From NCBI RefSeq assembly GCF_001306055.1, contig NZ_LGHJ01000023.1, forward strand, positions 1 to 32,000: 32,000 bases of DNA, written 5' to 3'. Source of the DNA: Bellilinea caldifistulae. Lineage in GTDB: Bacteria; Chloroflexota; Anaerolineae; Anaerolineales; Anaerolineaceae. A model generated the notes under the pieces. It did no database searches, was not told where the DNA came from, and saw only the letters and a program-made list of their open reading frames with translations. Made by a program: the position numbers and the translations under genes. The number at the start of each line of letters is the position of its first letter. The stretch's first letter is position 1. Shown here piece after piece: positions 5,841-32,000 of this stretch.

Positions 5841-5913
5841 CGCCCCTGGTGAGACTCGAACTCACAACCAACGGATTAGAAGTCCGGTGCTCTGTCCATT
5901 GAGCTACAGGGGC
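5841..5913 (-). tRNA. tRNA-Arg (anticodon TCT)
   Basis: The reverse complement reads GCCCCTG-TA-GCTC-AATGGAC-AGAGC-A-CCGGA-CTTCTAA-TCCGT-TGGTT-GTGAG-TTCGAGT-CTCAC-CAGGGGC-G. This gives a 7-bp acceptor stem, D arm, anticodon loop CT-TCT-AA and a T-arm with TTCGAGT. CCA is not encoded. The gene lies 25 nt upstream of tpx on the same strand. Confidence 0.9.
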
Positions 5914-5950
5914 AGTTCATGGATCAGGAACGATGGGCGAGCACCCATAA

Positions 5951-5980
5951 ATTATCATGATGTAAATTGATCAAATTCAA
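5951..5980 (-). promoter_or_regulatory. candidate sigma70-type promoter for tRNA-Arg and the downstream array
   Basis: On the minus strand, TTGAAT (5980-5975) is followed by an 18-nt spacer and GATAAT (5956-5951), about 38 nt upstream of the tRNA 5' end. This is a pattern match only. Confidence 0.25.
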
Positions 5981-6031
5981 TTATAGCACAGCCAGCATGA
6001 ACCTTTATCAGGTTGTATCTAATTCAATCAC

Positions 6032-6469
6032 TTATCCCCTTTGAAAAGGACGAATTCCTTGATAGACCGTTGTACCGGAGAATGTTTGTAAGATCTTATC
6101 GGCTGGCCTACCGATGATTTCTGCGAGTTCAACGGGAGTCAGCGGGGTATTTCCGTTGGAGAGGAAAACCCGAAAAACTGCATTGACCAGCGAGGTGTTT
6201 TGAGATAAAAATCCGGGTAATTTTGCACAATGTACCATCAAGGTATGCTGGAGACCATCCACCCGAGTGACTTCAGCGGTTTGAGGGTTGACCCAATCAA
6301 TCCAGGTCTCCTGACCCAGGCTTTCGAAAAAACTCTGGTGTTCAGGGCATAAAAAACTCAGCAAGAAAACCCGCCAATTTTGGTCATGGCTTTTCCACCA
6401 TTCAAAATCTATGTGAAAAGGGGTTTGCAGGGTTGGTTTAATGAGACTGAAGCGGCTGGAAATGCTCAT
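6032..6469 (-). CDS. hypothetical protein (no motif recognised)
   Basis: 145-aa ORF that begins 4 nt after the stop of the upstream 528-aa ORF on the same strand. No competing long ORF is present. Confidence 0.6.
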   Translation of the reverse strand: MSISSRFSLIKPTLQTPFHIDFEWWKSHDQNWRVFLLSFLCPEHQSFFESLGQETWIDWVNPQTAEVTRVDGLQHTLMVHCAKLPGFLSQNTSLVNAVFRVFLSNGNTPLTPVELAEIIGRPADKILQTFSGTTVYQGIRPFQRG

Positions 6470-6473
6470 TTTT

Positions 6474-8060: not shown

Positions 8061-8139
8061 GTTCCTGTTGCTCGATGGATTAAAATATGCGCTTCATTAC
8101 AGTGTTATTATACCCTGATAATGATAAATGTTGACAATT

Positions 8140-17536: not shown

Positions 17537-18925
17537 TTATCCCTGTTCACCATAATTGTAAAAGAAATGGACCAAAGTTTGAATCCCCTTGTACCAGGTG
17601 GGGAGGTGTAATTTTTCGTTTGGGCCATGAATGTTATCGTCCGACAAACCAAAACCGGTCAACACCGATTCGACTCCCAATATACGCTGCATATTACCAA
17701 CAACCGGGATACTGCCTCCTTCTCTTTTGTACACAGGAGGTTTGCCCCAAACGGAGACAAATGCATTGGCAAGTGCCTGAGTAGCCGGATGATGGATATC
17801 GGAAATTGATGCGGCTCCATAGGACATCTGGATTAATTCCCAGCGAACTGTTTTAGGGGCTTTTTCCATCAAGTATTGTTTGAGTTGGTCAAATACCGCC
17901 GCTGGGTCTTGATCCGGCACGAGGCGGGTGGAAATTTTTGCCATAGCCCACGAGGGAATGACGGTTTTTTGACCTTGACCCGTAAAACCAGAATAAAGGC
18001 CGTTCACGTCAAGCGAGGGGCGGGCTCCAACCCGTTCAACGGGCGTAAAACCTTTCTCACCATACAGGGCGGGGACGCCGGTTTGGCGTTTGTAGTATTC
18101 CTCATCCATAGGCAGTTTTGCCAGTTCGGCTCTTTCCTCCTCGGAAAGGGGGCGAACACGGTCATAAAAACCGGGTAGTGTAATTCTGCCATCCTGATCG
18201 TGCATTCCGGCGATCAACTCGGATATGACCTGGGCAGGATTGTGAACAACTCCACCAAATAAACCGGAATGAAGATCGTGTTCCGGGCCGTATACACGTA
18301 ATTCAAAGTAGGCTAAACCGCGTAATGCATATGTAATGGTGGGTAGGTCAGCTGCAATCATCCCTGAATCGGGATTAAGGGCAACATCACAAGCAAGTAA
18401 CTCTTTATGGCTTTCCATGAAGGAGTTTAAGTTTGGTGAACCAATTTCCTCTTCTCCTTCTATCATGAATTTTACGTTGACCGGCATTTTGCCGTTTTTG
18501 AGAATCGATTCAACGGCAAAAAGGGTTGCAGCTACCTGACCTTTCATATCGGATGCACCGCGCCCATACAGATTTTCACCGCGTACCGTTGCCTCAAAGG
18601 GAGGGCTTTTCCAAAGGTCATCAGGCTCGGAAGGTTGAACATCATAATGTCCGTAAATCAAAACGGTTGGCGCATTAGGCCGGTCGGCACATTGACATTC
18701 GCCGTAAACTACCGGATGACCCTCGGTGGGAATGATGGAAATCTCCCTTAAACCTAAATCCCTTAACTTGGCGGTGATCCATTCAGCAGCAGCCTGCATC
18801 TCCGCTTTCTTTTCGGGGTCGGTCGAAATAGATGGTATACGAACAAAATCTTTGAGCTGTTCTAAAAACGATTCCCGCATTGTGTTAGCATATTCGAGTG
18901 CCTTTTGGCGGTGGCTCATATCCAT
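17537..18925 (-). CDS. M20 family metallo-dipeptidase (CNDP/DUG1-like)
   Basis: 462 aa with LIYGHYDVQP, GRGASDMKG and MIEGEEEIGS metal and catalytic blocks. Confidence 0.88.
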   Translation of the reverse strand: MDMSHRQKALEYANTMRESFLEQLKDFVRIPSISTDPEKKAEMQAAAEWITAKLRDLGLREISIIPTEGHPVVYGECQCADRPNAPTVLIYGHYDVQPSEPDDLWKSPPFEATVRGENLYGRGASDMKGQVAATLFAVESILKNGKMPVNVKFMIEGEEEIGSPNLNSFMESHKELLACDVALNPDSGMIAADLPTITYALRGLAYFELRVYGPEHDLHSGLFGGVVHNPAQVISELIAGMHDQDGRITLPGFYDRVRPLSEEERAELAKLPMDEEYYKRQTGVPALYGEKGFTPVERVGARPSLDVNGLYSGFTGQGQKTVIPSWAMAKISTRLVPDQDPAAVFDQLKQYLMEKAPKTVRWELIQMSYGAASISDIHHPATQALANAFVSVWGKPPVYKREGGSIPVVGNMQRILGVESVLTGFGLSDDNIHGPNEKLHLPTWYKGIQTLVHFFYNYGEQG

Positions 18926-18983: not shown

Positions 18984-19011
18984 TTGCTTCACGCGAAAAT
19001 TCTGCTAAAAT
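18984..19011 (+). promoter_or_regulatory. candidate promoter for the ssnA leader
   Basis: TTGCTT (18984-18989) is followed by a 16-nt spacer and TAAAAT (19006-19011). This would give a 5' UTR of about 235 nt. It is a weak pattern match. Confidence 0.2.
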
Positions 19012-19022
19012 AAAAGTGAAAA

Positions 19023-19113
19023 GGTTCGGTGGTCAGTTCAAGGAAATCTTGACTGGCGTCGGGTAATTTTGTTCAGCCCGTCGAAAAGTGCCGCCCTCCT
19101 CCTCCACCGATCC
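19023..19113 (+). ncRNA. candidate structured 5' leader element (possible riboswitch aptamer, class unknown)
   Basis: There is a long-range helix GGTTCGGTGG (19023-19032) / CCACCGATCC (19104-19113) with 9 of 10 bp paired. It encloses two hairpins: 19034-19055 (8 bp with one bulged T) and 19057-19083 (6 bp with one T-T mismatch). A C/T-rich run follows at 19091-19108. Confidence 0.3.
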
Positions 19114-19188
19114 TATGAAAAATACCGATTTAATGATCTCCCCAAAATACAACATTGCCCGGTACCTGTTCCGGTCAAAAAGTTGAAC

Positions 19189-19218
19189 AAACCGAAAGGG
19201 ATTCCTTTCGGTTTTTTT
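19189..19218 (+). terminator. intrinsic terminator-like hairpin (probable attenuator) 36 nt upstream of ssnA
   Basis: An 11-bp perfect stem AAACCGAAAGG / CCTTTCGGTTT with loop GATT runs into a T7 tract (19212-19218). No upstream plus-strand gene exists for it to terminate. Confidence 0.6.
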
Positions 19219-19253: not shown

Positions 19254-20609
19254 ATGATTATCAAAAATGGAAAGATCATAACATGGCAGAACCCCAATCA
19301 AATTCTTGAGGATATGGCTCTATTAATTCAAAATGGGGTGATCACAAAAATTGGAAAATTTGAAGATATTAAACGAGCATTTCCTGCTGAAGAAGTGGTT
19401 GATGCTGGCGGACAGTACGTGATGCCTGGTAACATTTGCGCACACACCCATTTTTATGGGGCATTTGCACGCGGAATGGCCATTCCCGGCATGCCCGCAA
19501 AAGATTTTCCGGAGATTCTGGAAAAATTATGGTGGTCGCTGGACAAATCACTCAGTTTGGAAGATGTAAGGTACTCGGCATTGGTGTGTTTGATTGATGC
19601 GGTCAAGCATGGCACAACAACTTTGATTGATCATCACGCCTCGCCGAGCGCCATCCGTGGATCGCTGGATGAGATTGCTCAAGCAGTGGCTCAGGCCGGC
19701 GTGCGGGCTTCTTTGTGTTATGAGGTAACCGACCGCGAAGGTGAGAAGGGTGCTGAAGAAGGAATTCGTGAAAATCTGCGATTTATTGATCTGATAAAAA
19801 GAAACAATCCGCTGCCGGGGAAACTGGCTGGGATGTTTGGCTTACATGCCAGTTTGACCCTTTCCGAAGACACCCTGAGAAAATGCCGCGAAGCAGTAGC
19901 AGATGATGTCGGGTTTCATATCCACGTTGCCGAAGATCCAGCCGATGAATATGATAGTTTGTATAAGTGCGGCGAAAGAGTGGTGGACAGACTTTACCGC
20001 CATGGAATACTGGGTGAACGAAGTATTGCGGTTCATGCTGTGCATGTGGATGTTCGTGAGGTGGATTTGCTGGCGCAAACCAAGACATGGGTTACTCATC
20101 AACCGCGTTCCAACATGAACAATGCAGTGGGGATGTCGCAACCGGAAGGGATGCTGCGTGCCGGTGTTAGAGTGTGTTTGGGTAATGACGGATTTTCCAA
20201 CGCGATGTGGGAGGAGTGGAAGACAGCCTACCTTGCCCACAAGTTGTGGAATCGTGATCCTCGGCGAATGCCGGCTACCACGGTGGTGGAAATGGCAGTC
20301 TATAACAACCGGGCTCTCGCAGAGCAGCAATTTAACATCGGGCCGCTTGGGGTAATTTGTGAAGGGGCACAGGCTGACCTGATCTTTGTGGACTATCATC
20401 CATTTACCGAGTTAAACGAAGGAAATCTGCCCTGGCACATTGTTTTTGGTTTTCATGAGAGCATGGTGACTTCTACCATGGTGGCAGGTGAATTCCTGAT
20501 GCGCAATCGCCAACTGCTGACACTGGATGAGGAAAAAATTACCTACGAGGCTCGCCATCTATCTTCTCAAACCTGGCAGCGGTTTCAGAACCTCTTTCAA
20601 GTATCTTGA
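19254..20609 (+). CDS. ssnA: SsnA-type amidohydrolase (putative aminohydrolase linked to selenium-associated molybdenum hydroxylase clusters)
   Basis: 451 aa. It is collinear with my recollection of E. coli SsnA, from memory and not aligned by tool. The blocks are PGNICAHTHFYGAFARGM, LWWSLDKSL, LIDHHASP, HIHVAED and THQPRSNMNNAVG. Confidence 0.8.
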   Translation: MIIKNGKIITWQNPNQILEDMALLIQNGVITKIGKFEDIKRAFPAEEVVDAGGQYVMPGNICAHTHFYGAFARGMAIPGMPAKDFPEILEKLWWSLDKSLSLEDVRYSALVCLIDAVKHGTTTLIDHHASPSAIRGSLDEIAQAVAQAGVRASLCYEVTDREGEKGAEEGIRENLRFIDLIKRNNPLPGKLAGMFGLHASLTLSEDTLRKCREAVADDVGFHIHVAEDPADEYDSLYKCGERVVDRLYRHGILGERSIAVHAVHVDVREVDLLAQTKTWVTHQPRSNMNNAVGMSQPEGMLRAGVRVCLGNDGFSNAMWEEWKTAYLAHKLWNRDPRRMPATTVVEMAVYNNRALAEQQFNIGPLGVICEGAQADLIFVDYHPFTELNEGNLPWHIVFGFHESMVTSTMVAGEFLMRNRQLLTLDEEKITYEARHLSSQTWQRFQNLFQVS

Positions 20610-20633
20610 TTACAACAGAGGAGTTAATAAGCA

Positions 20634-21311
20634 ATGTCGCCACAAAAAACATATACCATCGGAATCATTGGAGGAACGGGTAAAGAAGGCAAAGGATTGG
20701 CTTACCGTTGGGCAAAGGCGGGGCATCGCATTACAATCGGTTCGCGGCAGGAAGAGAAGGCAAAGGCAGCAGCCCAGGAAGTCATGGAATTGCTGGGCGC
20801 CGATCATCTCGTTCGCGGGGAAGCAAATGAGGTAGCTGCTCAGGAATCCGACATTCTGGTCTTGACGGTTCCATATGCTGCTCATGCTGAGATGTGCGAG
20901 CGAATGAAACCTTTTGCCCAGGGCAAAATTATCATTGATGTAACCGTGCCACTGGTACCGCCGAAGGTTACCCGCGTTCAAATGCCACCTGAAGGAAGTG
21001 CAACCCAGCAGGCGCAAAAAATTATGGGAGAAGATGTGCAGGTCGTGGCTGCATTTCAAAATATCTCGTATGAACATCTCCTCAACGACGAGGAAGTAGA
21101 ATGTGATGTTCTGGTGTGCGGCGGCAACAAAGAAGCCCGGGAGGTCGTTTTACAGCTGGTTGAAGATGCCGGTTTGGTTGGTTGGAATGCGGGTCCGGTC
21201 GAAAATGCCGTGGTTGTTGAGGGGTTAACCTCGATCCTGATTGGGTTGAATAAACAATATGGTGTGCCCTCGTCAGGTATTCGGATTACCGGCATACCCC
21301 GAAAGTCATAA
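20634..21311 (+). CDS. npdG: NADPH-dependent F420 reductase (F420:NADP+ oxidoreductase, Fno/NpdG)
   Basis: 225 aa with the N-terminal Rossmann block IGIIGGTGKEGKGLAYRWAKAGHRITIGSR typical of NpdG. A GAGGAG SD lies upstream. Confidence 0.85.
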   Translation: MSPQKTYTIGIIGGTGKEGKGLAYRWAKAGHRITIGSRQEEKAKAAAQEVMELLGADHLVRGEANEVAAQESDILVLTVPYAAHAEMCERMKPFAQGKIIIDVTVPLVPPKVTRVQMPPEGSATQQAQKIMGEDVQVVAAFQNISYEHLLNDEEVECDVLVCGGNKEAREVVLQLVEDAGLVGWNAGPVENAVVVEGLTSILIGLNKQYGVPSSGIRITGIPRKS

Positions 21312-21320
21312 GGCTATCGC

Positions 21321-22091
21321 ATGAAAAAGCTGGAGTTGACTCCGCTCGCAGGAATTCCACTTATTCAAGCTGGAGATGATCTGGCAAAAATTACATTTGA
21401 TGCTCTAAAACACGAGAATATTCCATTATTGGATGGGGATATTCTCGTATTTGCCCAAAAGATAATTTCCAAAGCCGAGGGCCGGCTGGTGTATTTACCC
21501 GAGGTACAGCCTTCCGATCAGGCTATTCAAATCGCGGCAGAGGTTGAGAAAGATGCCCGTTTTATCGAATTGGTACTGCGTGAATCGCGCCAGGTGATTC
21601 GCAAGCGGCCCGGAACAATTATTGTTGAACATCGTCATGGTTTTATTTGTGCCAATGCCGGGATTGATCATTCGAATGTGCGCGGCCCTTACGGTGACCC
21701 CGACCTGTGGGTTTTGTTGCTTCCTGAAAACCCGGATCGTTCGGCGCAGCAAATCCGATCCGAAATTGAGAAGCGGGCGGGAGTAAAAGTTGGCGTGTTG
21801 ATCATCGACTCGCATGGGCGCGCCTGGCGGTTGGGGACGGTTGGTGTGGCAATTGGTCTTGCGGGATTGCCCGGTCTGGTTGATTTGCGTGGACAAACCG
21901 ACATGTTTGGTTACCAGCTGCGGATTACTCAGGTTGCAGCAGCTGATGAACTGGCGGCAGCCGCTTCGCTGGTGATGGGTCAGGCGGATGAACGAACGCC
22001 AATCGTTCACGTCAGGGGATTTCCCTACCCCTTGCGAGAGGGCAGTTTTGCAGAATTGCCCCGGCCGATTGAATTGGATTTGTTCCGATAG
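21321..22091 (+). CDS. cofE: coenzyme F420-0:L-glutamate ligase, single-domain CofE type
   Basis: 256 aa with VFAQKIISKAEGR and HGFICANAGIDHSN blocks. It has no C-terminal nitroreductase-like domain. Confidence 0.88.
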   Translation: MKKLELTPLAGIPLIQAGDDLAKITFDALKHENIPLLDGDILVFAQKIISKAEGRLVYLPEVQPSDQAIQIAAEVEKDARFIELVLRESRQVIRKRPGTIIVEHRHGFICANAGIDHSNVRGPYGDPDLWVLLLPENPDRSAQQIRSEIEKRAGVKVGVLIIDSHGRAWRLGTVGVAIGLAGLPGLVDLRGQTDMFGYQLRITQVAAADELAAAASLVMGQADERTPIVHVRGFPYPLREGSFAELPRPIELDLFR

Positions 22092-22107
22092 GGGAGTTGT
22101 TTCCTTG

Positions 22108-23067
22108 ATGAATGTGACGGTTCTGGCAGGCGGTGTGGGTGGCGCAAAACTGGCGCATGGCTTTGCACTTTGCCAGCCGGAAATTGACCTGACGGTGATT
22201 GTCAATACCGGAGATGATTTTGACCACTTTGGCTTGAGGATTTGCCCAGATCTGGATACGGTTTGTTATACGCTGGCAGGGTTGGCTAATCCTCAAACTG
22301 GCTGGGGACGCAAAGACGAAACCTATGAAGTGCTGCGGTGTGTTGGCGAACTGGGCGGACCGACGTGGTTTCGTTTGGGGGATAAAGACCTTGCCACTCA
22401 CCTTGAGCGAACCCGTCGCCTAAGCGAGGGTCAGCGATTGAGCGATGTGGTGACCGCTTTCTGCAGCACCTGGGGGATCAAAGCACGGGTGTTGCCCATG
22501 AGCGATGATCCGGTGCGTACGATGGTGGATACCCGTGAATATGGCTGGCTTGACTTTCAAAATTATTTTGTCCGCCATGCCTGCCGACCTACTATTCAAA
22601 AGATTGCATTTGAAGGGATTGAGCAGGCATTACCGGCCGCAGGTGTTTTGGAAGCATTAGAGGACAGTGATTTGATTGTGATTGCACCTTCCAACCCTTG
22701 GGTAAGTATTCAACCCATCTTATCGGTCAATGGGATTGCCTCAATGATCCAATCCCAAAAGGCGGTTGCGGTATCACCGATTATTCAAGGGCAAACCCTC
22801 AAAGGCCCGGCTGCAAAAATGTATCGTGAAATGGGGATTGAACCTTCCCCTGTGGCAGTCGCTCAACATTACAGTACCTTGCTGTGGGGGTTGGTCATGG
22901 ATGAATTAGACCGAGGATTTGAATCAACCCTGATGTCGTCAGGTATAATGGTATTAAGTACACAAACGATCATGCAAAATGAGCAGGATCGTCTCAGTTT
23001 GGCGCGAGAAATCCTCACATTCAGCCAAGACCGCAATCCAAATCAGATGCCAAGAAGGGAGTTTTGA
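22108..23067 (+). CDS. cofD: 2-phospho-L-lactate (or analogue) transferase CofD/FbiA
   Basis: I place the start at the ATG at 22108 (MNVTVLAGGVGGAKLAHG). The track ORF start at 21988 overlaps cofE by 104 nt in non-homologous sequence. Confidence 0.88.
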   Translation: MNVTVLAGGVGGAKLAHGFALCQPEIDLTVIVNTGDDFDHFGLRICPDLDTVCYTLAGLANPQTGWGRKDETYEVLRCVGELGGPTWFRLGDKDLATHLERTRRLSEGQRLSDVVTAFCSTWGIKARVLPMSDDPVRTMVDTREYGWLDFQNYFVRHACRPTIQKIAFEGIEQALPAAGVLEALEDSDLIVIAPSNPWVSIQPILSVNGIASMIQSQKAVAVSPIIQGQTLKGPAAKMYREMGIEPSPVAVAQHYSTLLWGLVMDELDRGFESTLMSSGIMVLSTQTIMQNEQDRLSLAREILTFSQDRNPNQMPRREF

Positions 23068-23070
23068 CGA

Positions 23071-23685
23071 ATGGGCCTGTGGGCAATTGTCCCCGTGAAA
23101 CCCCTGCGTCGCGGTAAATCACGTCTTGCAAGTGTATTATCGGAAGACGAACGGGCGTTATTAAATTTTACGATGTTGAGCAGCACCTTGCGCACTTTAC
23201 AGGAGGTCGAGGAAATTGACCAGATTCTGGTGGTCAGCCGCGACCCCGCGGCTTTATCACTGGCCAGGGAATATAAAGCCAGAACGGTTCAGGAGGATGG
23301 CCAGCCAGAGTTGAACACTGCTTTGCAACGTGCAACGGTTGTTGCACAAATGTATGCTGCACAGGAAATTCTGATTTTGCCGGCTGACCTGCCGCTGCTC
23401 TCTGTGAGCGATATTCACCGAATTCTTCAGCGTGCTAAAAATCCACCGGTTGTCGTAATCTCGCCTGACCGACGTAACGATGGCACTAACGCTCTTTACA
23501 TGAATCCGGCGGGGATTATCGAATATCGCTACGGGCCGGGCTCTTTTCATCAGCATGTAGAACAGGCACGGTTGAAGGGGGTTCGGGTGGAAGTTTGTCA
23601 GCTTTCCACCTTGAGCTTGGATTTGGACTTACCCGAAGATTTGGACTTGCTAAAACAAATCGAAGCCATGCAAATTGAACCTTGA
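23071..23685 (+). CDS. cofC: F420 biosynthesis guanylyltransferase CofC/FbiD
   Basis: 204 aa with the N-terminal [16 protein letters not shown] block and ADLPLL, typical of CofC. It starts 3 nt after the cofD stop. Confidence 0.82.
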
Positions 23686-23713
23686 GAAAAATTTTTTTCA
23701 CCGGGAGGAAACC

Positions 23714-24712
23714 ATGTCCGAAAGAGTAGCGCTTTATTTGCAGGATGCCCACGATTTGCGGGACGGCCTTGAGTACGTCAAATACGCCGAAAAACGCGGT
23801 TTTGAAGCGGTTTGGCAGGCAGAGAGCCGTTTGGTGAGGGATGCGATTGTTCCCATGGCAGCATATGCAGCCGTAACGGAGCGGATTAAAGTGGGTTCAG
23901 GGGTCATCAACAACTGGACTCGCAATATCGGCCTGCTGGCTGCCACATTTTTGACTCTGGATGACCTTGCCCCGAATCGGATCATCTGTGGCATTGGGGC
24001 ATGGTGGGATCCCTTGGCAAAGAATGTGGGTATCGAGAGGCGAAAACCACTGACCGCCATGCGGGAAACGGTGATCGTTTTGCGCCGGTTATTGAATATG
24101 GAACGGGTTACCTTCCATGGTGAGTTTGTGCATGTCGAGGGGATTGAATTGGATGTGGTGCACGGTCGGCGTGAACCCAGAAATGTGCCGATCATGATTG
24201 GTGCAACCGGCGATCAAATGATGGAATTGACAGGGGAAATTGCGGATGGAGCCGTGTTGAATTACTGTGTGCCGCCCGAATATAACATTCGCGCATTGGA
24301 ATTGCTGGAAAAAGGTGCAAAGAAGTCAGGACGCACGCTGGATGACCTTGACCGACCTCAGCTGGTGGTTTGCTCGGTTGATCACGACCGCGAAAAAGCG
24401 ATTGATACCACCCGTGAATTGCTGACACAGTATCTGGCTCAACAACCACATATTGCCAAGGCTTCGGGTGTATCCCAGGATGTAGTGGCTGAGATTCAAT
24501 CCATATTGGGATGGCCGGCAACCCATGAGCAGATTCAAAAGGCAAAACATCTCGTGCCGGAAGACTTGATCCACCAAATTACCGCTTCCGGAACGCCCGA
24601 GGAAGCGCGCGCAAAAGTGGATGAGTATCGCAAATACGGCTGCACCTGCCCGATTCTTTACCCGGTGGGTGGTGATGTCAAACTCTTGATTGACACATTT
24701 GCCCAGCAATAA
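23714..24712 (+). CDS. luciferase-like monooxygenase (LLM) class, probable F420-dependent oxidoreductase
   Basis: I place the start at the ATG at 23714 (MSERVALYL...), preceded by GGGAGG. It has LLM/Mer-like features ([41 protein letters not shown]). The F420 assignment comes from family resemblance and genomic context. Confidence 0.75.
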
Positions 24713-24764
24713 TAGCGTTGTTTTCCCTCTTTTAGGTGTTTTTCCTGATCTGGAGGTTGATTCA

Positions 24765-25526
24765 ATGATCAAAGAATACTATCGCCCAAAGACGCTTTCG
24801 GAAGCGGAACAATTATTCAAAATGGGTGATAAAAAGTATGTACCCCTGGGTGGTGGTAGTTTGCTCAGCCGATCCAAAGAAGACCTGTGTGTTGTGGATT
24901 TACGGGATTTAGGGCTGAATCGGATTGAGGTAGTTGGGCAAAGAGCGGACATTGGAGCAACCGTAACTTTGCAACAACTTCTGGAATCGGAGTTTGCCCA
25001 TGCAACCCTTAAAGAGGTTATCCGAAAATCGGCAACCTTGAATCTTCGGAATCAGGTCACGCTGGGAGGTTATGTTGTTTCAGCAGATGGACGATCGCCA
25101 CTGGCAATTGCCTTAATGGCCATGGACGCAAAGTTGATCTGGCATCCTAATCAGGAGACTCAGTCCATTGGTGATTGGTTTTCATTGCGGCAACCGCGTG
25201 GGTTTTGGATCCACGCAATTCAATTGAATTTAAATCTTGTGATGGATTATGAACAAGTAGCAAGAACGCCGATGGATCAGCCGATTCTGGCCATTGCGGC
25301 TGCTCGCTGGCCTTCGGGAAGAATCAGAGTTGCTGCCGGAGGTTATGGGAGTGCCCCGTTGCTTGTTTTGGATGGCCCGGAAGACGGCGGGGTGATTGAA
25401 GCGGTCAGGAATGCTTTGAGTGCCAGTGGAGATGAATGGGCAACCGCGGAATATCGGCAAGCAGTAGGTCAAGTGTTCGTACGCCGAATCATGGATCGAA
25501 TTTCGTCAGGTCTTCAGAGTAAATGA
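24765..25526 (+). CDS. xanthine dehydrogenase family FAD-binding subunit, YgfM-like
   Basis: I place the start at the ATG at 24765 (MIKEYYRPKTLSEA), preceded by GGAGG. The FAD_binding_5-type layout has divergent motifs PLGGGSLL and LRNQVTLGGYV. The C-terminal block is AEYRQ. Confidence 0.8.
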   Translation: MIKEYYRPKTLSEAEQLFKMGDKKYVPLGGGSLLSRSKEDLCVVDLRDLGLNRIEVVGQRADIGATVTLQQLLESEFAHATLKEVIRKSATLNLRNQVTLGGYVVSADGRSPLAIALMAMDAKLIWHPNQETQSIGDWFSLRQPRGFWIHAIQLNLNLVMDYEQVARTPMDQPILAIAAARWPSGRIRVAAGGYGSAPLLVLDGPEDGGVIEAVRNALSASGDEWATAEYRQAVGQVFVRRIMDRISSGLQSK

Positions 25527-25537
25527 GGAGCCAGGCA

Positions 25538-28500
25538 ATGAAGAAAGTTTCCTTTGCTCTCAACGGAATTGTTCAACACTGGGAAGTTGCCGATGGTGAG
25601 ACTTTGTTGGCCTCCCTGCGGCGTGAAGGATATTTTGGGGTTAAATTTGGTGGATGTGAAAAGGGCGAGTGCGGTGCATGTACCGTACTGCTAGATGGGA
25701 AGCCAGTCAATTCTTGCTCTCTGTTGACTGTGCAGGTGGAAGGCTGCCATGTACAGACCATTGAAGGAATGGGAGAACATCCCGATCAGGGCTGGAAGAA
25801 GACCGCCGGATTACACCCCATTCAACAGGCGCTGGTGGAAAGCGGTGCTATCCAATGTGGATATTGTACCCCCGCCTTTGCTCTGGCCGCAAAAGCCTTG
25901 CTGGAAAAAAATCCCAATCCCAGTGAAGAGGAAGTGCGGGAAGCCATCGCTGGAATCCTCTGTCGTTGTACCGGTTACTTGAAACCTGTCCAGGCCATTC
26001 TCAAGGCGGCTTCGATTTTGCGGGGAGAAGTGGACGAGCAGGATTGGATCGAGGATACGGGTGTTCCTTTACCTGTGGATTGGCCTTCGGGAGCAGACCA
26101 ATCACCTGCGCCAGCCGGCGACTTCGGTTCACCTGAAAAATTGGTGCTTACCCGCCGTAAGGTCTTCATGCCGCGCATGTTCATTACACCTGAGGTTCGC
26201 CAAAAGACTCTTTCGCGAGTTGGAAAGCCTGAATTAAAAGTAGATGCCATCAAGCTGGTACAGGGAAAGCCTGCGTTTGCAGCGGACATGGAAAAACGCG
26301 GCATGCTGATTGCCAAAGTACTGCACAGTCCGGTGGCTCATGCCCGTATCAAGCACATTGATCTAAGTAAAGCCCGGGCATTACCGGGTGTGGCAGCGGT
26401 GCTATGTTACAAAGATATACCGCGGGTGGTTTACTCAACCGCTGGTCAGTCGGATCCGATACCCGGCCCATTAGATACTTTTTCACTGGATTCAAAGGTG
26501 CGTTTTGTGGGCGACCGGGTGGCGTTTGTTGCCGCCGAAACTGAGGAAATTGCTGAACAGGCACTCAATCTGATTGAAGTTGAATACGAACCCCTGCCGG
26601 CAATTCTGGATGCCCGTGATGCCATGAAACCCAATGCGCCGATTATCCACGACGAACCGGAATACGTCAATTTCGGAGAGTCGAATCCACAAAGAAATCT
26701 GGCAGCACAAATTCACATTGATATTGGGGACGTTGAAAAAGGATTTGAAGAAGCCGATCGAATTTATGAAGCCGAGTATGTTGTTCCAAAAGTGCAGCAA
26801 GCCCATATTGAGCCGCATGTGGTTGTAACCTACTGGGATGAGGATGATCGTCTGGTGATTCGCACCAGCACGCAGGTGCCATTCCACGTCAGGAGAATTT
26901 TGGCGCCTGTGCTGGGGCTGCCGGTAAAACGGATTCGAGTCATTAAACCACGCATTGGTGGCGGTTTTGGTGGAAAACAGGAAGTTCTGATCGAGGATGT
27001 TGCTGCTCATTTGACCATTGCTACCGGAAGACCCGTGTTGTATGAATACACCCGTGAAGAGGAGTTCATCGCTGCTCGATCCCGCCATCCCATGCGAATC
27101 CGTATGAAAACAGGCGTAAAGATGGATGGCACAATAACCGCCAATGAAATGCGGGTGCTTTCGGATACCGGTGCGTACGGCTGTCATGGTTTGACGGTCA
27201 CCGGAAATACCGGTCACAAATCTATGGCATTGTATGTCGGAGATGGCCCATATCGTAAATCCCCGAATATCCGTTTCTATGCGGATGTTGTTTATACCAA
27301 TACCCCACCGGCCGGGGCTTACCGGGGTTATGGTGTACCGCAGGGATTCTGGCCGGTTGAAAGGCACATGGAGCGGATCAGTCGAGACCTGGGGCTTGAT
27401 CCGATTGCCTTCCGGTTAAAAAATGCCATCCGCGAAGGTGAATTGCATCCTTTTAGCACGGCATGGAGTGAAGGCCGTGAACCACGCCCGGAAATTATTC
27501 AAACGGTTGGGCTGGAAGAATGTGTCCGCCAGGGAAAGGCCGTCATCGGCTGGGATCAAAAATTTGGCAATCCCGAATGGCATGTGGTGGCGGGTAAACC
27601 CTATTTACGGCGCGGGATCGGTGTTGCGCTGGTCATGCAGGGTACGGCGATTCCCTATCTGGACATGGGCGGTGCCAGTATCAAGATGAACGACGATGGA
27701 TCATTCAACCTTCTGGTTGGGGCAACCGATCTCGGCACCGGCTCGGACACGGTTCTGGCACAAATGGCGGCTGAGGTGCTGGGTGTGCCGGTGGATGATA
27801 TCATCGTCTATTCATCGGACACAGACTTCACCCCCTTCGACAAAGGGGCTTATGCCTCTTCAACGACTTACATATCCGGTGCAGCAGTCGTCAAGGCAGC
27901 TGAAGATGTTGCTGAAAAAATCAAAAAACGAGCTGCCCGAATGATAAAGGAACAGCATCCCAGTGTTCAGGTTTCGCCTGAAGATATTTTGCTCGAAGAT
28001 CGTAAAGCGATTGCCCCTGGCGGGGAATACGTCACCCTGGCTCAGGTTGCCTTGAATGCTCTGCATCACACGGATCAGGAACAGATTATGGGGATTGGTT
28101 CGTATTATTCGCCGGTTTCACCCCCGCCATTTGCGGCTCAATTTGCCGAAGTAACAGTGGATGTTGAAACCGGGCAAATTACCGTTGATCGTTTGGTGAT
28201 GGCTGTGGATTCGGGTGTCATTGTCAACCCGGTGACGGCTTCGGGTCAAATTGAGGGAGGAATGACGCAGGCGCTGGGATATGCCGTATGTGAAGAAATG
28301 GTTTATGATCAATACGGTCGGGCGCGTGAGAAGGATTTGGTGGATTATCATATCTTCCGTGCAAACGAAATGCCAAAGTTGGAAACGGTGTTTGTGCAGA
28401 CTTATGAACCTTCTCACCCGTTTGGGGTCAAGGCTGTTGCGGAAATTCCCATGGATGGGGTTGCCCCGGCGGTTGGTAATGCCGTTTTAGATGCTTGCGG

Positions 28501-28585
28501 TGCGGATGTCTTTGAAAATCCCATCACACCCGAACGTCTCTGGCGGGCTCTTAAGGAAAAACAATCTGTTGCAGATCATCATTAA
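25538..28585 (+). CDS. fused [2Fe-2S] / molybdopterin-binding subunit of an XDH-family hydroxylase (XdhD-like)
   Basis: There are two 2Fe-2S motifs (GCEKGECGACTV...SCS; CGYCTPAF...CRCTGY) and a linker of roughly 70-90 aa. The Ald_Xan_dh Mo domain follows with IGGGFGGKQE and the C-terminal catalytic-Glu context GVKAVAEIP. The start at 25538 is preceded by GAGGAG. An alternative ATG at 25523 overlaps the upstream stop. Confidence 0.9.
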   Translation: MKKVSFALNGIVQHWEVADGETLLASLRREGYFGVKFGGCEKGECGACTVLLDGKPVNSCSLLTVQVEGCHVQTIEGMGEHPDQGWKKTAGLHPIQQALVESGAIQCGYCTPAFALAAKALLEKNPNPSEEEVREAIAGILCRCTGYLKPVQAILKAASILRGEVDEQDWIEDTGVPLPVDWPSGADQSPAPAGDFGSPEKLVLTRRKVFMPRMFITPEVRQKTLSRVGKPELKVDAIKLVQGKPAFAADMEKRGMLIAKVLHSPVAHARIKHIDLSKARALPGVAAVLCYKDIPRVVYSTAGQSDPIPGPLDTFSLDSKVRFVGDRVAFVAAETEEIAEQALNLIEVEYEPLPAILDARDAMKPNAPIIHDEPEYVNFGESNPQRNLAAQIHIDIGDVEKGFEEADRIYEAEYVVPKVQQAHIEPHVVVTYWDEDDRLVIRTSTQVPFHVRRILAPVLGLPVKRIRVIKPRIGGGFGGKQEVLIEDVAAHLTIATGRPVLYEYTREEEFIAARSRHPMRIRMKTGVKMDGTITANEMRVLSDTGAYGCHGLTVTGNTGHKSMALYVGDGPYRKSPNIRFYADVVYTNTPPAGAYRGYGVPQGFWPVERHMERISRDLGLDPIAFRLKNAIREGELHPFSTAWSEGREPRPEIIQTVGLEECVRQGKAVIGWDQKFGNPEWHVVAGKPYLRRGIGVALVMQGTAIPYLDMGGASIKMNDDGSFNLLVGATDLGTGSDTVLAQMAAEVLGVPVDDIIVYSSDTDFTPFDKGAYASSTTYISGAAVVKAAEDVAEKIKKRAARMIKEQHPSVQVSPEDILLEDRKAIAPGGEYVTLAQVALNALHHTDQEQIMGIGSYYSPVSPPPFAAQFAEVTVDVETGQITVDRLVMAVDSGVIVNPVTASGQIEGGMTQALGYAVCEEMVYDQYGRAREKDLVDYHIFRANEMPKLETVFVQTYEPSHPFGVKAVAEIPMDGVAPAVGNAVLDACGADVFENPITPERLWRALKEKQSVADHH

Positions 28586-28600
28586 AATGGGTGAGGAAAA

Positions 28601-29392
28601 ATGCTGGCTATTTATCGTGAAATTGCCAAAATAATTGAGGAAGGGAATGCGGCTGCCGTATGTACGATTATTGAAACCAGCGGATCGGTGCCGCGCCACG
28701 AAGGCAGCAAAATGCTTGTTTTCCCGGATGGATCCTTCATTGGGACAGTGGGGGGCGGAGAGGTGGAAAATCGGGTGATCCAGGAGGCTCTTCAATCCTT
28801 GAAGGATGGAAAAATACGCAACCTCCGCTACAATATGGTTGATCCAGAACAAGGCGATCCGGGAGTTTGCGGTGGGACGCTGGAGGTGTACGTGGAACCA
28901 ATCTTACCCAAGCCCACTCTGGTTGTAATCGGCGGTGGACATGTCGGCAGGGCGGTTGTACATCTTGCCAAGTGGCTGGGATTCACGGTGGCTGTGAGTG
29001 ATGACCGTCCGGAGTTCTGTACCCCGGAAGCGAACCCCGGAGCGGATTTATTTTTCCCGGTGAAAATGGCGGAATTACCTCAGCACTTAAAAATCACTCC
29101 CTATACCTATCTGGTGTTGACGACCCGCGGTAGTAACATTGATGTGGAGGGTTTGGAACCACTGCTTCATACCGAGGCAGCCTACATTGGTGTGATCGGT
29201 TCAAAACGACGTTGGCTGGTAACCCGTAAAGCTTTGCTTGAAAAAGGAGTTTCTGAGGAATTACTCAATCGCGTCCATTCACCAATGGGCTTAGAATTAA
29301 ATGCAGAGACTCCGGAGGAAATTGCGGTCAGCATCATGGCAGAAATTATCATGCTACGGAACGGCGGAAGTGGAGAGAGGATGCGGATTTAG
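28601..29392 (+). CDS. xdhC: XdhC/CoxI family molybdenum-cofactor insertion accessory protein
   Basis: 263 aa with the N-terminal XdhC_CoxI block (TIIETSGSVPRHEGSKMLV) and the C-terminal Rossmann-like VVIGGGHVGRAV. Confidence 0.88.
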   Translation: MLAIYREIAKIIEEGNAAAVCTIIETSGSVPRHEGSKMLVFPDGSFIGTVGGGEVENRVIQEALQSLKDGKIRNLRYNMVDPEQGDPGVCGGTLEVYVEPILPKPTLVVIGGGHVGRAVVHLAKWLGFTVAVSDDRPEFCTPEANPGADLFFPVKMAELPQHLKITPYTYLVLTTRGSNIDVEGLEPLLHTEAAYIGVIGSKRRWLVTRKALLEKGVSEELLNRVHSPMGLELNAETPEEIAVSIMAEIIMLRNGGSGERMRI

Positions 29393-29402
29393 GAGGGCGT
29401 CC

Positions 29403-30842
29403 ATGTGGAAGAACGTTTTCAGTGCAGTATCAATTGAAGAAGTTTTAAACCTCCTCGCAGAAAAAAAGGAGAAAGCGCGGATCATTGCCGGAGCAACCGA
29501 TTTGATTTTAGAGATAGAACGGGGGGTGCGCCATGGCATTGAAACGCTGGTGGATGTTTCACGCATCCCTAATCAGGATCAAATTATTCTGGATGAAGAT
29601 GGGTGGATTCATCTTGGCCCATTAGTGACCCACAATCATTGTGTTGCTTCAAAAATGATTGTGGATCTGGCATTCCCGCTTGCACAGGCAGCCTGGGAAG
29701 TCGGTTCTCCACAAATTCGCAACCGCGGAACGATTGCCGGCAATTTGATCACTGCTTCTCCGGCTAATGACACGATTACTCCCTTGATGGCTTTGGGGGC
29801 GCGTATTACCCTCCAATCCTTGAAGGGAACTCGTACACTTCCGCTGGAAAAATTTTATCAGGGGGTTCGACGGGTGGATTTGCAGCCCGACGAGATGTTG
29901 GTGGATATTGCTTTCCCTGCCCTCAAGCCTGATGAACGGGGGATGTTTATTAAGTATGCTCTTCGCCGGGCGCAAGCGATTTCTCTGGTGAATGTTGCCG
30001 TGATTTTGACTTTTGACGGAGAGCGAGTTTCAAAAGCCAGTATCACTTTGGGGGCAGTGGCTCCTACCATTATTCACGCGCCAGAGGCGGAAGAATATTT
30101 AGTTGGTAAATCCCTCTCACCGGAAGTGATTCAACAGGCTGGGCAATTAACCATGAAAGCCGCCCGGCCTATTTCGGATGTGCGCGGCTCCGCTGAATAC
30201 CGCCGCAGGATAGTAGGGGTGATCACCCGACGATCTTTGACGGCGTTGGCTGCCCACCGAGAAAGGGAAGGGTTTCCACAGCGCCCGGTGTTGTTATGGG
30301 GAAGCGAAAATCCTCCACGAGGACATTTGGATCACTCCATTCTCCATGAAGAAGGTGTGCCTATTGAAACAACCATCAATGGTAAACCTTATTCCATTCG
30401 AGGCGGGCATCAGAAATCACTCTTGAGGTTTATCCGCGAGGATGTTGGTCTGATTGGAAGTAAAGAGGGTTGTGCCGAGGGAGAGTGCGGAGCGTGTACC
30501 GTTTTTCTGGATGGTACTGCGGTGATGAGCTGCATGGTGCCCGCTACCCGTGCGCATGGCGCGCAGATCATCACGGTTGAAGGGTTAGCCAGTGACGGAA
30601 CTCTTCATCCGGTTCAAAAGGCCTTTGTCCAGGATGGAGCTGTTCAGTGCGGTTATTGCACTCCGGGTTTCTTGATGTCGGCAGCCAAATTGCTTGAAGA
30701 GCGCCCGACACCTACTCAAGAGGAAATTCGGCAGGCAATGACCGGAAATTTGTGCCGATGTACGGGTTATTATAAAATTATTCAGGCCGTAGAGGATGCT
30801 GCTCAGTTGGCGAATAAGGGAGGAAAAAATCATGCCCAATAA
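29403..30842 (+). CDS. fused FAD-binding / [2Fe-2S] subunit of a second XDH-family hydroxylase
   Basis: I place the start at the ATG at 29403 (MWKNVF...), preceded by AGGAGG. Canonical FAD motifs are IIAGATDLILE, IRNRGTIAGNLITASPANDT and SAEYRR. The 2Fe-2S motifs GCAEGECGACTV, CGYCTPGF and CRCTGY follow. Confidence 0.88.
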   Translation: MWKNVFSAVSIEEVLNLLAEKKEKARIIAGATDLILEIERGVRHGIETLVDVSRIPNQDQIILDEDGWIHLGPLVTHNHCVASKMIVDLAFPLAQAAWEVGSPQIRNRGTIAGNLITASPANDTITPLMALGARITLQSLKGTRTLPLEKFYQGVRRVDLQPDEMLVDIAFPALKPDERGMFIKYALRRAQAISLVNVAVILTFDGERVSKASITLGAVAPTIIHAPEAEEYLVGKSLSPEVIQQAGQLTMKAARPISDVRGSAEYRRRIVGVITRRSLTALAAHREREGFPQRPVLLWGSENPPRGHLDHSILHEEGVPIETTINGKPYSIRGGHQKSLLRFIREDVGLIGSKEGCAEGECGACTVFLDGTAVMSCMVPATRAHGAQIITVEGLASDGTLHPVQKAFVQDGAVQCGYCTPGFLMSAAKLLEERPTPTQEEIRQAMTGNLCRCTGYYKIIQAVEDAAQLANKGGKNHAQ

Positions 30843-31209
30843 ATATGGAAATTTACAAGCCAAGCAACAAGAGATGATGCGCGAATCGCGCAATTATGTC
30901 CACCCGATTTGGCGGGGGGTTGGCTTCATTCTGATCATCCTGACGCCAATTTTGGGGTACTTTGGAACAATTGCCTTGCTGGAAGAGAACGCTCGCCAAA
31001 AATGGTTTGTTATCCCGGTTGATTTGCTTGCTCCGGGAGCCGATCCTCTGTTATTTGTCAAAATAGGGATGACCCTGATTTTGGCATTTCTCTTCTATTT
31101 CTTGTTTCAATTTATCAGCATGGTTTTGTTCAGGTTGTTGGGACCTTCTCGGTATGGTCCGTATGATGTACCCCCTGTCAGTTATCGTGGAAAAAAATAC
31201 CGGCGATGA
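30832..31209 (+). CDS. small predicted 2-TM membrane protein, function unknown
   Basis: 125 aa from the ATG at 30832, with GGGAGG 8 nt upstream. It overlaps the upstream gene by 11 nt. Two hydrophobic segments are present (GFILIILTPILGYFGTIALL; IGMTLILAFLFYFLFQFISMVLF) and the C-terminus is basic. Without it there would be a 389-nt non-coding gap in an otherwise tight array. Confidence 0.55.
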   Translation: MPNKYGNLQAKQQEMMRESRNYVHPIWRGVGFILIILTPILGYFGTIALLEENARQKWFVIPVDLLAPGADPLLFVKIGMTLILAFLFYFLFQFISMVLFRLLGPSRYGPYDVPPVSYRGKKYRR

Positions 31210-31231
31210 AGTGTAAAGTGGAGGTTGAACC

Positions 31232-32000
31232 ATGAGCATAGTCGGCGAGTCTGTTGTCCGGGTTGATGCGATTGGCAAAGTCACCGGAGAAACATTGTAT
31301 CCGGGAGATTTTAATTTACCCAACCAAGCTTACATGAAAATTTTATTTGCCCAGCACCCCCACGCGATCATCAAACGATTGGATACCTCGAAAGCTGAGC
31401 AATATCCGGGTGTGCTGGCTGTATTTACGGCAAAGGATGTTCCCAATAACGAGTACGGTTTAATCATGCCGGATCAACCGGTATTGTGTGGCCCTGGCTC
31501 GACAAAACCTTTTGCCGATCGAGTGAGGTTTATTGGGGATCAGGTTGCGCTGGTGATTGCCGAAACCGAACAAATTGCCGCGGAAGCCTTGAAATTGATT
31601 GAGATTGAGTATGAAGCCTTGCCGGTGATCACCGATCCACGTGAAGCCATGAAGGCAGATGCGATCCTGATGCATCCGGACAAGGGATCCAATGTGTTTG
31701 GACGTTATCGTATTCGTAAGGGAGATGTGGAAAAAGCGTTTCAACAAGCCGATGTGATTGTTGAGGGTTACTATCAAACGCCAGCGCAGGAACACGCTTA
31801 TCTCCAGCCGGAGGCGGGTTTAAGTTTTATAGATGAAGCAGGCAGAGTAACTATTATCGTTGGGGGGCAATGGACGCATGAAGATCAGGAACAAATTGCC
31901 CATGCGCTGGCTTTGCCGCTGGATCAGGTGCGGGTAATTTACCCGGCGATTGGTGGGGCCTTTGGCGGTCGAGAGGATATGTCGGTTCAGGTTGTACTGG
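31232..32000 (+). CDS. molybdopterin-binding large subunit of the second XDH-family hydroxylase (5' partial, continues beyond the window)
   Basis: This ORF is not in the supplied track because it is open-ended. My own translation from the ATG at 31232 (GGAGG at 31220-31224) gives [26 protein letters not shown]...[12 protein letters not shown]...[10 protein letters not shown]...[11 protein letters not shown]. These are typical Ald_Xan_dh_C and Mo-domain blocks. Confidence 0.88.

Follow-up and report, generated by a model that had tools for sequence, protein, structure and literature searches.

We describe here a 32,000-nucleotide stretch of Bellilinea caldifistulae DNA (the window; GCA_001050215.2, contig DF967971.1), in which the gene for an SsnA-type amidohydrolase, a set of coenzyme F420 genes, the gene for a Mer-like oxidoreductase of the luciferase-like monooxygenase (LLM) family and the genes of molybdenum (Mo) hydroxylases follow one another on the plus strand. 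Judging from the families to which their products belong, it is somewhat probable that these genes form the upper part of an anaerobic reductive pathway of uric acid (purine) degradation, in a version that depends on coenzyme F420. The LLM protein would then be a candidate F420H2-dependent reductase of the purine ring (yanthine reductase), standing in for the YgfK and UacX enzymes of other bacteria. The association of ssnA, the F420 genes and the LLM gene is itself real, and the gene linkage is meaningful. A more inclusive reading, in which the LLM would be the first F420H2-dependent purine-ring reductase, with its cofactor genes co-transcribed, a new riboswitch class gating the first open reading frame (ORF) and the deazaflavin precursor FO possibly scavenged, is offered only tentatively, as taken together these parts may well not all hold.

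Proposed pathway and its precedents

That the E. coli and clostridial gene clusters encode a reductive uric-acid pathway was established by experiment in two 2025 studies (PMC12507026; commentary PMC12990295). In this pathway, urate is reduced to yanthine (2,8-dioxopurine) by XdhD-YgfM, the aromaticity of yanthine is abolished by YgfK or by the PydA-like UacX, SsnA then cleaves the ring to give ureidomethyl-hydantoin, and a lower pathway consisting of HyuA, YgeW or UacY, YgeY and YgeX leads to pyruvate (PMC12507026). Chloroflexota are stated in the same work to have neither YgfK nor UacX, and an F420-dependent yanthine reductase was proposed for them (Li et al. 2025, PMC12507026). The idea is therefore already in print as a bioinformatic remark, and what is described here is a variant and not a new system; in a literature search, no other paper linking yanthine and F420 was found, nor any paper on F420 in Anaerolineae. 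A preliminary description of the window, made from the sequence letters, had offered an F420H2-dependent LLM reductase acting in the same purine pathway as one of two possibilities, and this possibility fits the data, its novelty being removed by the published proposal. The contiguity of ygfK-ssnA-ygfM-xdhD in E. coli, on which that description drew, is correct; the link to selenate reduction that it gave as background is superseded by the reductive uric-acid pathway (PMC12507026, PMC12990295).

The steps of the pathway in B. caldifistulae were assigned from the protein families. A conventional xanthine dehydrogenase (XDH), composed of a FAD/FeS subunit, a small membrane protein and a Mo subunit, would oxidize hypoxanthine or xanthine to urate, and an XdhD-type enzyme with its YgfM-like FAD subunit would remove the 6-oxo group of urate, yielding yanthine. 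The Mer-like LLM would transfer a hydride from F420H2 to yanthine, replacing YgfK of E. coli, a Fe-S flavoprotein that depends on NAD(P)H, or the PydA-like UacX of Clostridia, and SsnA would hydrolyze the reduced ring to ureidomethyl-hydantoin. CofC, CofD and CofE would build F420 from FO, Fno (NpdG) would recharge it with NADPH, and XdhC, YqeB, the YqeC-MocA fusion and MocA would mature a cytosine-dinucleotide molybdenum cofactor, probably a selenium-dependent one. Once the second, conventional XDH is counted in, no net redox change would be expected between hypoxanthine and reduced yanthine.

In the step catalyzed by YgfK, a hydride (two electrons) is added to an electrophilic carbon of the ring, and F420H2-dependent LLMs such as Mer carry out a reaction of this kind on a pterin-type heterocycle. 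The replacement of YgfK or UacX by the LLM is favored because this hydride chemistry fits F420H2-dependent LLMs and because the core of ssnA, F420 genes and LLM gene mirrors the coupling of YgfK with SsnA, which is required in vitro (Li et al. 2025, PMC12507026). No homologue of a YgfK/UacX-type reductase was found in the window, in agreement with the preliminary description, or in the related loci, with the sole exception of a dihydropyrimidine dehydrogenase (DPD)-like gene in locus L069, which is discussed below.

Extent and transcription of the unit

Twelve consecutive plus-strand genes had been listed for this region beforehand, and all 12 ORFs were recovered at the positions given for them, running from 19254 to the window end with exactly the claimed spacings of 24, 9, 16, 3, 28, 52, 11, 15, 10, -11 and 22 nt (start codons being those of the public gene calls). 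The claim that the genes are not separated by terminator-like hairpins also stood up: terminator-like sites between 19254 and 32000 were limited to weak stems of 5 to 7 bp inside coding DNA, the count of such sites in the scanned region was no higher than in shuffled sequences (18 versus 15.3 +/- 4.1), and the sole strong hairpin, at 19189-19214, lies upstream of ssnA. One transcription unit is thus probable. On the same contig (locus L085), the unit continues beyond the window with the rest of the Mo subunit gene, a gene for YqeB, a gene for a YqeC-MocA fusion and a second MocA-like gene, downstream of which a convergent gene closes it, so that a single operon of about 16 genes in all is probably present. 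Since the counterparts of YqeB, YqeC and MocA lie past the window end, the E. coli block yqeB-yqeC-mocA-ygfK-ssnA-ygfM-xdhD is fully matched with the exception of ygfK.

F420 genes and the Mer-like LLM protein

The F420 genes lie, as had been claimed, between ssnA and the ygfM/xdhD-type genes, and hidden Markov model searches bore out the earlier assignments of ssnA, npdG, cofE, cofD and cofC, all of which score above their NCBIfam cut-offs. The first gene of the block, npdG (fno), encodes NADPH-dependent F420 reductase (20634..21311; TIGR01915, 203 bits versus a cut-off of 149.8; PF03807). It is followed by cofE, encoding F420-0:glutamate ligase without the FbiB C-terminal domain (21321..22091; TIGR01916, 278.4 versus 180.65), cofD, encoding 2-phospho-L-lactate transferase (22108..23067; TIGR01819, 311.9 versus 257.45 bits), and cofC, encoding the guanylyltransferase of F420 biosynthesis (23071..23685; TIGR03552, 171.7 versus 105 bits); for CofC, CofD, CofE and NpdG alike, these are equivalog cut-offs. 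The F420 block of most relatives contains a stand-alone FbiB C-terminal nitroreductase gene between cofE and cofD, and many relatives also have a PPOX-class F420 oxidoreductase (102 bits versus 79), a 2H phosphoesterase and a pyrophosphatase-like gene at this place; loci with extra genes of this kind are L008, L024, L054, L063, L069, L078 and L207-L209, and the window genome has none of them between cofE and cofD.

The LLM gene (23714..24712) encodes a protein whose 15 top NCBIfam matches are all F420-class LLM families. It is nearer to the F420-type families (58 to 176 bits) than to the FMN-type families (36 bits or less), and its top relatives in the PDB are the F420-dependent Mer (E = 2e-38) and then FGD. 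The sequence-level match to Mer already fixes the fold.

The LLM protein also stands out by its conservation. Relative to the proteins of the window, orthologues of the LLM have a median identity of 87%, compared with 74% for XdhD, 55 to 65% for SsnA and the products of the cof genes and 43% for YgfM; across Anaerolineales, the LLM ranges from 84 to 98% and its neighbors from 45 to 65%, and in Phototrophicus it is still 70% identical, with neighbors at 46 to 56%. Because identity at fourfold-degenerate third positions is 0.28 to 0.31 for all genes, that is, saturated in the LLM gene as in its neighbors, the high identity of the LLM protein reflects very strong purifying selection, and recent horizontal transfer was rejected as its source.

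Conservation of the gene order

A scan of a genome collection with the LLM protein returned more than 570 relatives, the best 80 of which were all from Anaerolineales and were used for locus counts. Window proteins were mapped onto these loci, with at least 6.5 kb of upstream DNA (55 loci) or at least 5 kb of downstream DNA (59 loci) being needed for a locus to be counted. Upstream of the LLM gene, npdG, cofE and cofC were present in 53 of 55 loci and ssnA in 50 of 55, and the order ssnA, F420 genes, LLM was kept in about 50 of the 55 informative loci. Downstream, ygfM was found in 34 and the XdhD-type gene in 32 of 59 loci. In 20 of the 59, with 5 to 10 kb covered, no XDH gene follows the LLM gene, and some of these have an XDH pair upstream of ssnA instead. 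Three XDH types accompany the core, the type varying between loci. The core is thus made up of ssnA, the F420 genes and the LLM gene, and XDH-type genes are its frequent but variable neighbors.

Rearranged loci illustrate which adjacencies persist. In L063 and L069, the order is cofD-cofC followed later by ssnA-LLM, with ssnA directly before the LLM gene; in L068, the order LLM-ygfM, followed later by xdhD, is kept without cof genes. A further locus, L052, has cofD-cofC-LLM alone.

In a representative library clustered at 50% identity, the nearest full-length relatives of the window LLM are 41 to 51% identical to it. A distant LLM group, 51 to 70% identical to the window LLM, was examined through the gene contexts of three members. 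Phototrophicus methaneseepsis, which belongs to a different class in the NCBI taxonomy, shows the order SsnA-Fno-CofE-FbiB-C-CofD-CofC-LLM, then an 835-amino-acid (aa) protein and XdhC and, further on, FAD/FeS subunit, small protein, DUF6909 protein and Mo subunit, its SsnA scoring 515 bits versus 444. The preliminary description had named uniqueness to this genome as the outcome that would speak against it; instead, the order is conserved across Anaerolineales and reaches Phototrophicus, and the adjacency of ssnA, F420 genes and LLM gene is therefore ancient and occurs widely. The protein encoded after the LLM gene in the distant clade is 786 to 835 aa long (L207, 11012-13519; L208, 11136-13496; L209, 5435-7903); it has no Pfam domain and a weak glycosyltransferase-like NCBIfam match, and it sits where Bellilinea has ygfM-xdhD.

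SsnA and the molybdenum hydroxylases

The amidohydrolase encoded by ssnA (19254..20609) passes both curated cut-offs (NF005540, 527.8 bits versus 444; TIGR03314, 488.5 versus 455.5) and is 34% identical to E. coli SsnA (EcSsnA) over its full length. The assignments are less sharp for the hydroxylase genes that follow the LLM gene. For the LLM, YgfM-like and fused FeS-Mo proteins, the labels of the preliminary description are supported by best matches and, for the latter two, also by architecture and reciprocal E. coli matches, but none of the three reaches a family cut-off. The YgfM-like FAD-binding subunit (24765..25526; PF00941) scores 71.6 bits with TIGR03312, its best NCBIfam match, against a cut-off of 241.5; its best match in E. 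coli is YgfM (26% identity, E = 1e-16), which is similar in length and position. The XdhD-type fused 2x[2Fe-2S] and molybdopterin subunit (25538..28585) scores 722.4 bits with TIGR03313 (cut-off, 1101.9), and the XdhA model NF043082 gives a nearly equal score, 712.5, on the Mo part alone; identity is 37% to EcXdhD over 1,015 aa and 36% to EcXdhA over the Mo part. The fused FeS-Mo architecture, an N-terminal 2x[2Fe-2S] region and then the Mo domain, is seen in the order of the Pfam domains.

An insertion specific to XdhD is present in this protein with a Glu equivalent to E606 of EcXdhD (AWSEGREP, versus AIGEGKAP in EcXdhD); neither EcXdhA nor the third XDH type, which other genomes encode upstream of ssnA, has this insertion. 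As Glu606 of EcXdhD has been proposed to orient urate (Li et al. 2025, PMC12507026), the XdhD-type subunit is a candidate urate-to-yanthine reductase. All eight cysteines of the two [2Fe-2S] motifs are kept in the window protein (25538-26020), and none of these eight is found in the aligned N-terminal domain of EcXdhD (L083, 23317-26187); the electron route in the E. coli enzyme therefore becomes a question.

The genes for the second, conventional XDH follow that for an XdhC-family maturation factor (28601..29392; PF02625 and PF13478; 38% identical to residues 1-259 of YqeB). They encode a fused FAD and 2x[2Fe-2S] subunit (29403..30842; PF00941, PF03450 and PF01799; TIGR02963, 322 bits), a small protein of 125 aa (30832..31209) and a PucD-like Mo subunit that is cut by the window end (31232..32000; TIGR03196, 231 bits on the fragment) and that in full, at 737 aa (L085), scores 612.8 bits, below the cut-off of 783.65. 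XdhC, the FAD-FeS fusion and the truncated Mo subunit had been named correctly beforehand, and the two hydrophobic segments of the small protein, described as a two-transmembrane protein, are indeed seen. The small protein had no Pfam or NCBIfam match; it is encoded in 25 Anaerolineales loci, with 29 to 92% identity, between the FAD/FeS and Mo-subunit genes, and it hints that the second XDH may be membrane-associated. An unannotated small gene, matched by position only, is found at the equivalent place in L207 (16665-17063) and L209 (11284-11724), and in the distant clade the DUF6909 protein comes after it.

Past the window end (L085), a YqeB equivalog (TIGR03309, 297.8 bits versus 220) and a YqeC equivalog fused to a MocA-like transferase (TIGR03172, 134.7 bits versus 73.05) are encoded, the MocA score of 168 falling just short of the cut-off of 186. 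The cluster thus contains the YqeB and YqeC equivalogs of the maturation set for selenium-dependent Mo hydroxylases. E. coli YqeB (541 aa) corresponds to two genes here, the XdhC-like gene (28601-29392) and that for a 269-aa TIGR03309 protein (L085, 14063-14872), with the three second-XDH genes lying between them.

Leader RNA upstream of ssnA

A structured RNA of 91 nt with three helices, P1, P2 and P3, identified by alignment with relatives, occupies positions 19023..19113 of the plus strand and is a riboswitch candidate, possibly of a new class, by which the unit would be controlled. An extended -10-like element, TGCTAAAAT (19003..19011, plus strand), read from the sequence and predicted to act as a promoter, precedes it by about 12 nt; TGnTAAAAT stands upstream of most of the 39 leader instances listed. 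The leader consists of a closing helix, GGAUCGG...CCGAUCC, two hairpins rich in compensatory changes and an invariant GUCGAAAAG-YGCCRCC, its structure having been obtained with RNAalifold on 18 instances. A covariance model gave 41 matches of 36 to 89 bits in 1.24 Mb, one per locus, and in all 41 loci the leader is placed before ssnA or before the extra XDH pair that precedes ssnA. Standard pairs make up 96.1% of the paired cells, compared with 86.6% in shuffles, none of 500 of which reached the observed value; 11 of the 19 pairs change on both sides, and sliding the partners by 1 to 3 columns lowers pairing to 23 to 57%.

A pattern scan of metagenomes returned 120 matches to the leader core, about 19 of them real and all of these in an Anaerolineae ssnA-cluster context; most of the 120 were rejected as false positives inside ABC-transporter ATPase genes. 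No relevant family was found in Rfam 15 at permissive thresholds for the window leader and those of three other loci, word searches of the literature found no described motif for it, and the leader model had no match in Phototrophicus-type loci.

A start codon follows the 3' strand of P1 by 0 to 4 nt, and in at least 18 loci this start codon opens an XDH FAD-subunit gene. In the window it opens a leader ORF of 23 codons (19115..19186, plus strand), the AUG lying 1 nt after the P1 3' strand and the stop codon 2 nt before the stem of an intrinsic terminator-like hairpin, which has an 11-bp stem and a U run (19189..19214, plus strand), lies 40 nt before the ssnA start codon and is kept in close relatives. 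The same leader-ORF layout is found in L003 and L126; the short ORFs of L005, L007, L038 and L103 extend into the terminator or past it. No conservation is seen among the peptides. The third XDH type, with an XdhB-like FAD subunit and a fused FeS-Mo subunit without the XdhD insertion, is encoded between leader RNA and ssnA in 12 of 43 loci (L009, L010, L011, L025 and L029 among them), and the window lineage appears to have lost it and to have kept the position of its start codon as the short leader ORF.

A covarying 5' leader structure followed by an expression platform, the arrangement of a riboswitch, is therefore present. The hairpin at 19189-19214 probably acts as an attenuator, and no simple antiterminator pairing was evident for the leader in minimum-free-energy folds. 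Because P1 abuts the start codon and the leader ORF ends at or runs into the terminator, the leader is suggested to gate translation initiation: it would set expression of the operon at the abutting start codon, and the terminator of Bellilinea would be kept from forming by a ribosome located on the leader ORF. The likeness to the xanthine/urate riboswitch (NMT1 motif) and to purine riboswitches is presumably functional, each being a cis-regulatory RNA before purine-oxidation genes. In general plan we also take the leader to be comparable to them, with a junction of three helices, a conserved joining strand and an expression platform after it; as we understand these motifs, it differs from them in sequence and helix arrangement.

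Neighboring genes

The genes upstream of 19254 are on the opposite strand or have housekeeping functions (Lon, Hsp20, redoxin, YbeY, ComEA and an M20 peptidase). The last of these, an M20 family peptidase encoded divergently from the operon (17537..18925, minus strand; dipeptidase model NF006053, 531.9 bits versus a cut-off of 441), adjoins the leader or ssnA in 24 loci and is thus a conserved neighbor whose membership in the pathway is uncertain. It was rejected as a YgeY equivalog, scoring 54.8 versus 321 with the YgeY model and being 26% identical to EcYgeY over 128 aa.

Weighing the alternatives

A number of observations speak against an F420-dependent purine pathway and have to be set beside those in its favor. 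The LLM protein misses every F420 LLM family cut-off, the best being those of Mer (176 versus 276 and 172 versus 348.7 bits), and because no curated cut-off is passed, even its F420 dependence rests on similarity; its 87% conservation, moreover, is unusual for a catabolic enzyme. Its tightest partner is cofC and not ssnA (adjoining in 70 of 73 loci, with overlapping genes in L207-L209), and L208 contains F420 genes and the LLM gene but neither ssnA nor genes for XDH subunits. About 45% of loci lack the YgfM/XdhD pair, and the only XDH types of Pelolinea and Phototrophicus are conventional ones. The lower pathway is likewise not in evidence, as tblastn with E. coli HyuA, YgeW, YgeX and YgeY gave no matches in the window and about 85 loci (UacY was not searched), and the same applies to the permeases XanQ and UacT, as well as to YqeA. 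Two genes for pyridoxal phosphate (PLP) enzymes upstream of Phototrophicus ssnA were considered as YgeX and rejected, being ThrC- and CysK-like. A crude radical-SAM screen for FO synthase (CofG/CofH or FbiC), extending as far as 10 kb to either side of the LLM gene in 80 loci, found no unassigned ORF of at least 300 aa with CxxxCxxC in the first 200 residues. As no FO synthase was found near the LLM gene, scavenging of FO from methanogen partners was considered and is conceivable; Bellilinea comes from methanogenic sludge and grows better with methanogens. Locus L069, finally, has a DPD/YgfK-like reductase gene (5879-8405; PreT-like, PreA-like and Fer4) between cofC and an E. coli-like ssnA, just before the LLM gene. 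This gene shifts its reading frame once, near 6466-6507. It may be what is left of a displaced reductase, an assembly error or a case of true coexistence, and unless it is a relic or an error, its presence together with the LLM gene argues against a simple one-for-one replacement of YgfK.

Several of these points would be met if the block from npdG to the LLM gene were a general F420 operon that stands beside purine genes by inherited order, with the LLM in a housekeeping role such as Mer-like C1/pterin reduction or cofactor maturation. The close pairing of cofC with the LLM gene, the L208 block, the isolated cofD-cofC-LLM of L052, the further F420 clients and maturation genes that many genomes have within the block (PPOX-class oxidoreductase, FbiB C-terminal domain), a level of conservation typical of central enzymes and the lack of lower uricolytic genes nearby would all agree with this explanation. 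It is nevertheless one that we regard as unlikely, since ssnA and XDH genes flank the block, with intervals of just a few nucleotides and without terminators, one leader RNA precedes it that elsewhere directly precedes XDH genes, the order persists across two class-level lineages despite saturated synonymous sites, and after rearrangement the LLM gene stays with ssnA (L063, L069) or with ygfM-xdhD (L068), not just with cof genes. The LLM might otherwise take part in N-heterocycle catabolism together with SsnA and the hydroxylases but at a different substrate or step, acting on another oxopurine or a pterin-like ring or in parallel to a DPD-type reductase. This would suit the presence of both reductase genes beside ssnA in L069, the three XDH types that accompany the core, the many genomes without the yanthine-making XdhD type and a window SsnA that is just 34% identical to EcSsnA; on the other hand, SsnA is above its equivalog cut-off, the E. 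coli scheme needs two reductions only, for both of which there are candidates here, and the XdhD-specific insertion is conserved. We consider a different substrate distinctly unlikely.

The other possibility raised in the preliminary description, that F420 and Fno form the pyridine-nucleotide link of the hydroxylase, found no specific support. F420 would in this case be the redox partner of the Mo hydroxylases, their FAD subunits exchanging hydride with F420/F420H2 in place of NAD(H), Fno providing the connection to NADP(H) and the LLM being an accessory. F420 genes and XDH-family genes occur together in most loci and also in another lineage at class level, the YgfM-like subunit is so divergent (43% median identity and far below the TIGR03312 cut-off) that its donor specificity could differ, and the physiological donor of the clostridial XdhAC is still unknown (PMC12990295). 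Yet the conserved core consists of ssnA, F420 genes and LLM gene, with 20 of 59 loci lacking an XDH downstream and the XDH type varying, and a role of F420 as hydroxylase partner leaves unexplained why no other protein of the unit is as conserved as the Mer-like LLM. To our knowledge, no XDH-type FAD domain reacts with F420. The E. coli XdhD-YgfM, in addition, works with NADH (PMC12507026). Of the explanations considered, this appears to us the least probable, and the reduction of yanthine by an F420H2-dependent LLM remains the one that we favor.

Significance

Elucidated as recently as 2025, the anaerobic urate pathway is relevant to medicine through gout and gut uricolysis, and different lineages are already known to use different enzymes for its reductase step. 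If the proposed function of the LLM is correct, purine catabolism would be added to the roles of F420, and a first physiological role would be assigned to this cofactor in fermentative Anaerolineae, which are very abundant in digesters and sediments; a simple, Fe-S-free enzyme would also become available for the engineering of urate degradation. The ligand of the leader RNA would reveal what these bacteria sense when deciding on purine degradation. To the published remark, the present analysis adds the full extent of the operon with its maturation genes, counts that show the gene order to be conserved, also at deep divergence, the signature that is specific to XdhD, the exceptional degree to which the LLM protein is constrained and a leader RNA that is a candidate for a new class of riboswitch.

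Comparison with known systems

The closest precedent is the E. coli cluster, with which the Bellilinea unit shares an SsnA equivalog, an XdhD-type subunit with the E606-containing insertion, a short YgfM-like subunit encoded before it, counterparts of YqeB (here split in two), YqeC and MocA, and the arrangement of the genes in one direction. The E. coli cluster also contains ygeW-ygeX-ygeY-hyuA-yqeA (Li et al. 2025, PMC12507026), whereas no lower-pathway genes or permeases were found near the Bellilinea unit. Bellilinea further differs in having no YgfK, in the five genes of the F420 block, the LLM gene included, that lie between ssnA and ygfM, in the insertion of a second, conventional XDH and in an XdhD-type protein that retains the [2Fe-2S] cysteines absent from EcXdhD.

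The clostridial variant of C. difficile and C. sporogenes, with UacX and XdhAC, provides a precedent for the exchange of the yanthine reductase and its electron donor with SsnA being kept. UacX, however, is a DPD-family FMN enzyme that is probably fed by ferredoxin, whereas the TIM-barrel LLM of Bellilinea would use a diffusible deazaflavin; one relative of Bellilinea (L069), as described above, carries a DPD-like gene as well.

Mer (PDB 8QQ8, 1Z69 and 1F07) is the closest solved and curated relative of the LLM protein, matching it over about 300 residues, and in its reaction the hydride of F420H2 is delivered to a carbon that is bound to a fused N-heterocycle. The LLM differs from it in scoring below the Mer cut-offs, in its host, a fermentative bacterium, and in its context, which is purine catabolism and not C1 metabolism. 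The bacterial F420 operons (fbiD/cofC, fbiA/cofD and fbiB/cofE) with Fno, in turn, have in common with the Bellilinea unit the four equivalogs and, in relatives, the stand-alone FbiB C-terminal nitroreductase. Purine, xanthine and uric acid are nowhere mentioned in a major review of F420 (PMC8498797). In contrast to those operons, the genes of Bellilinea have no FO synthase gene found nearby and are situated inside a catabolic operon, under its leader.

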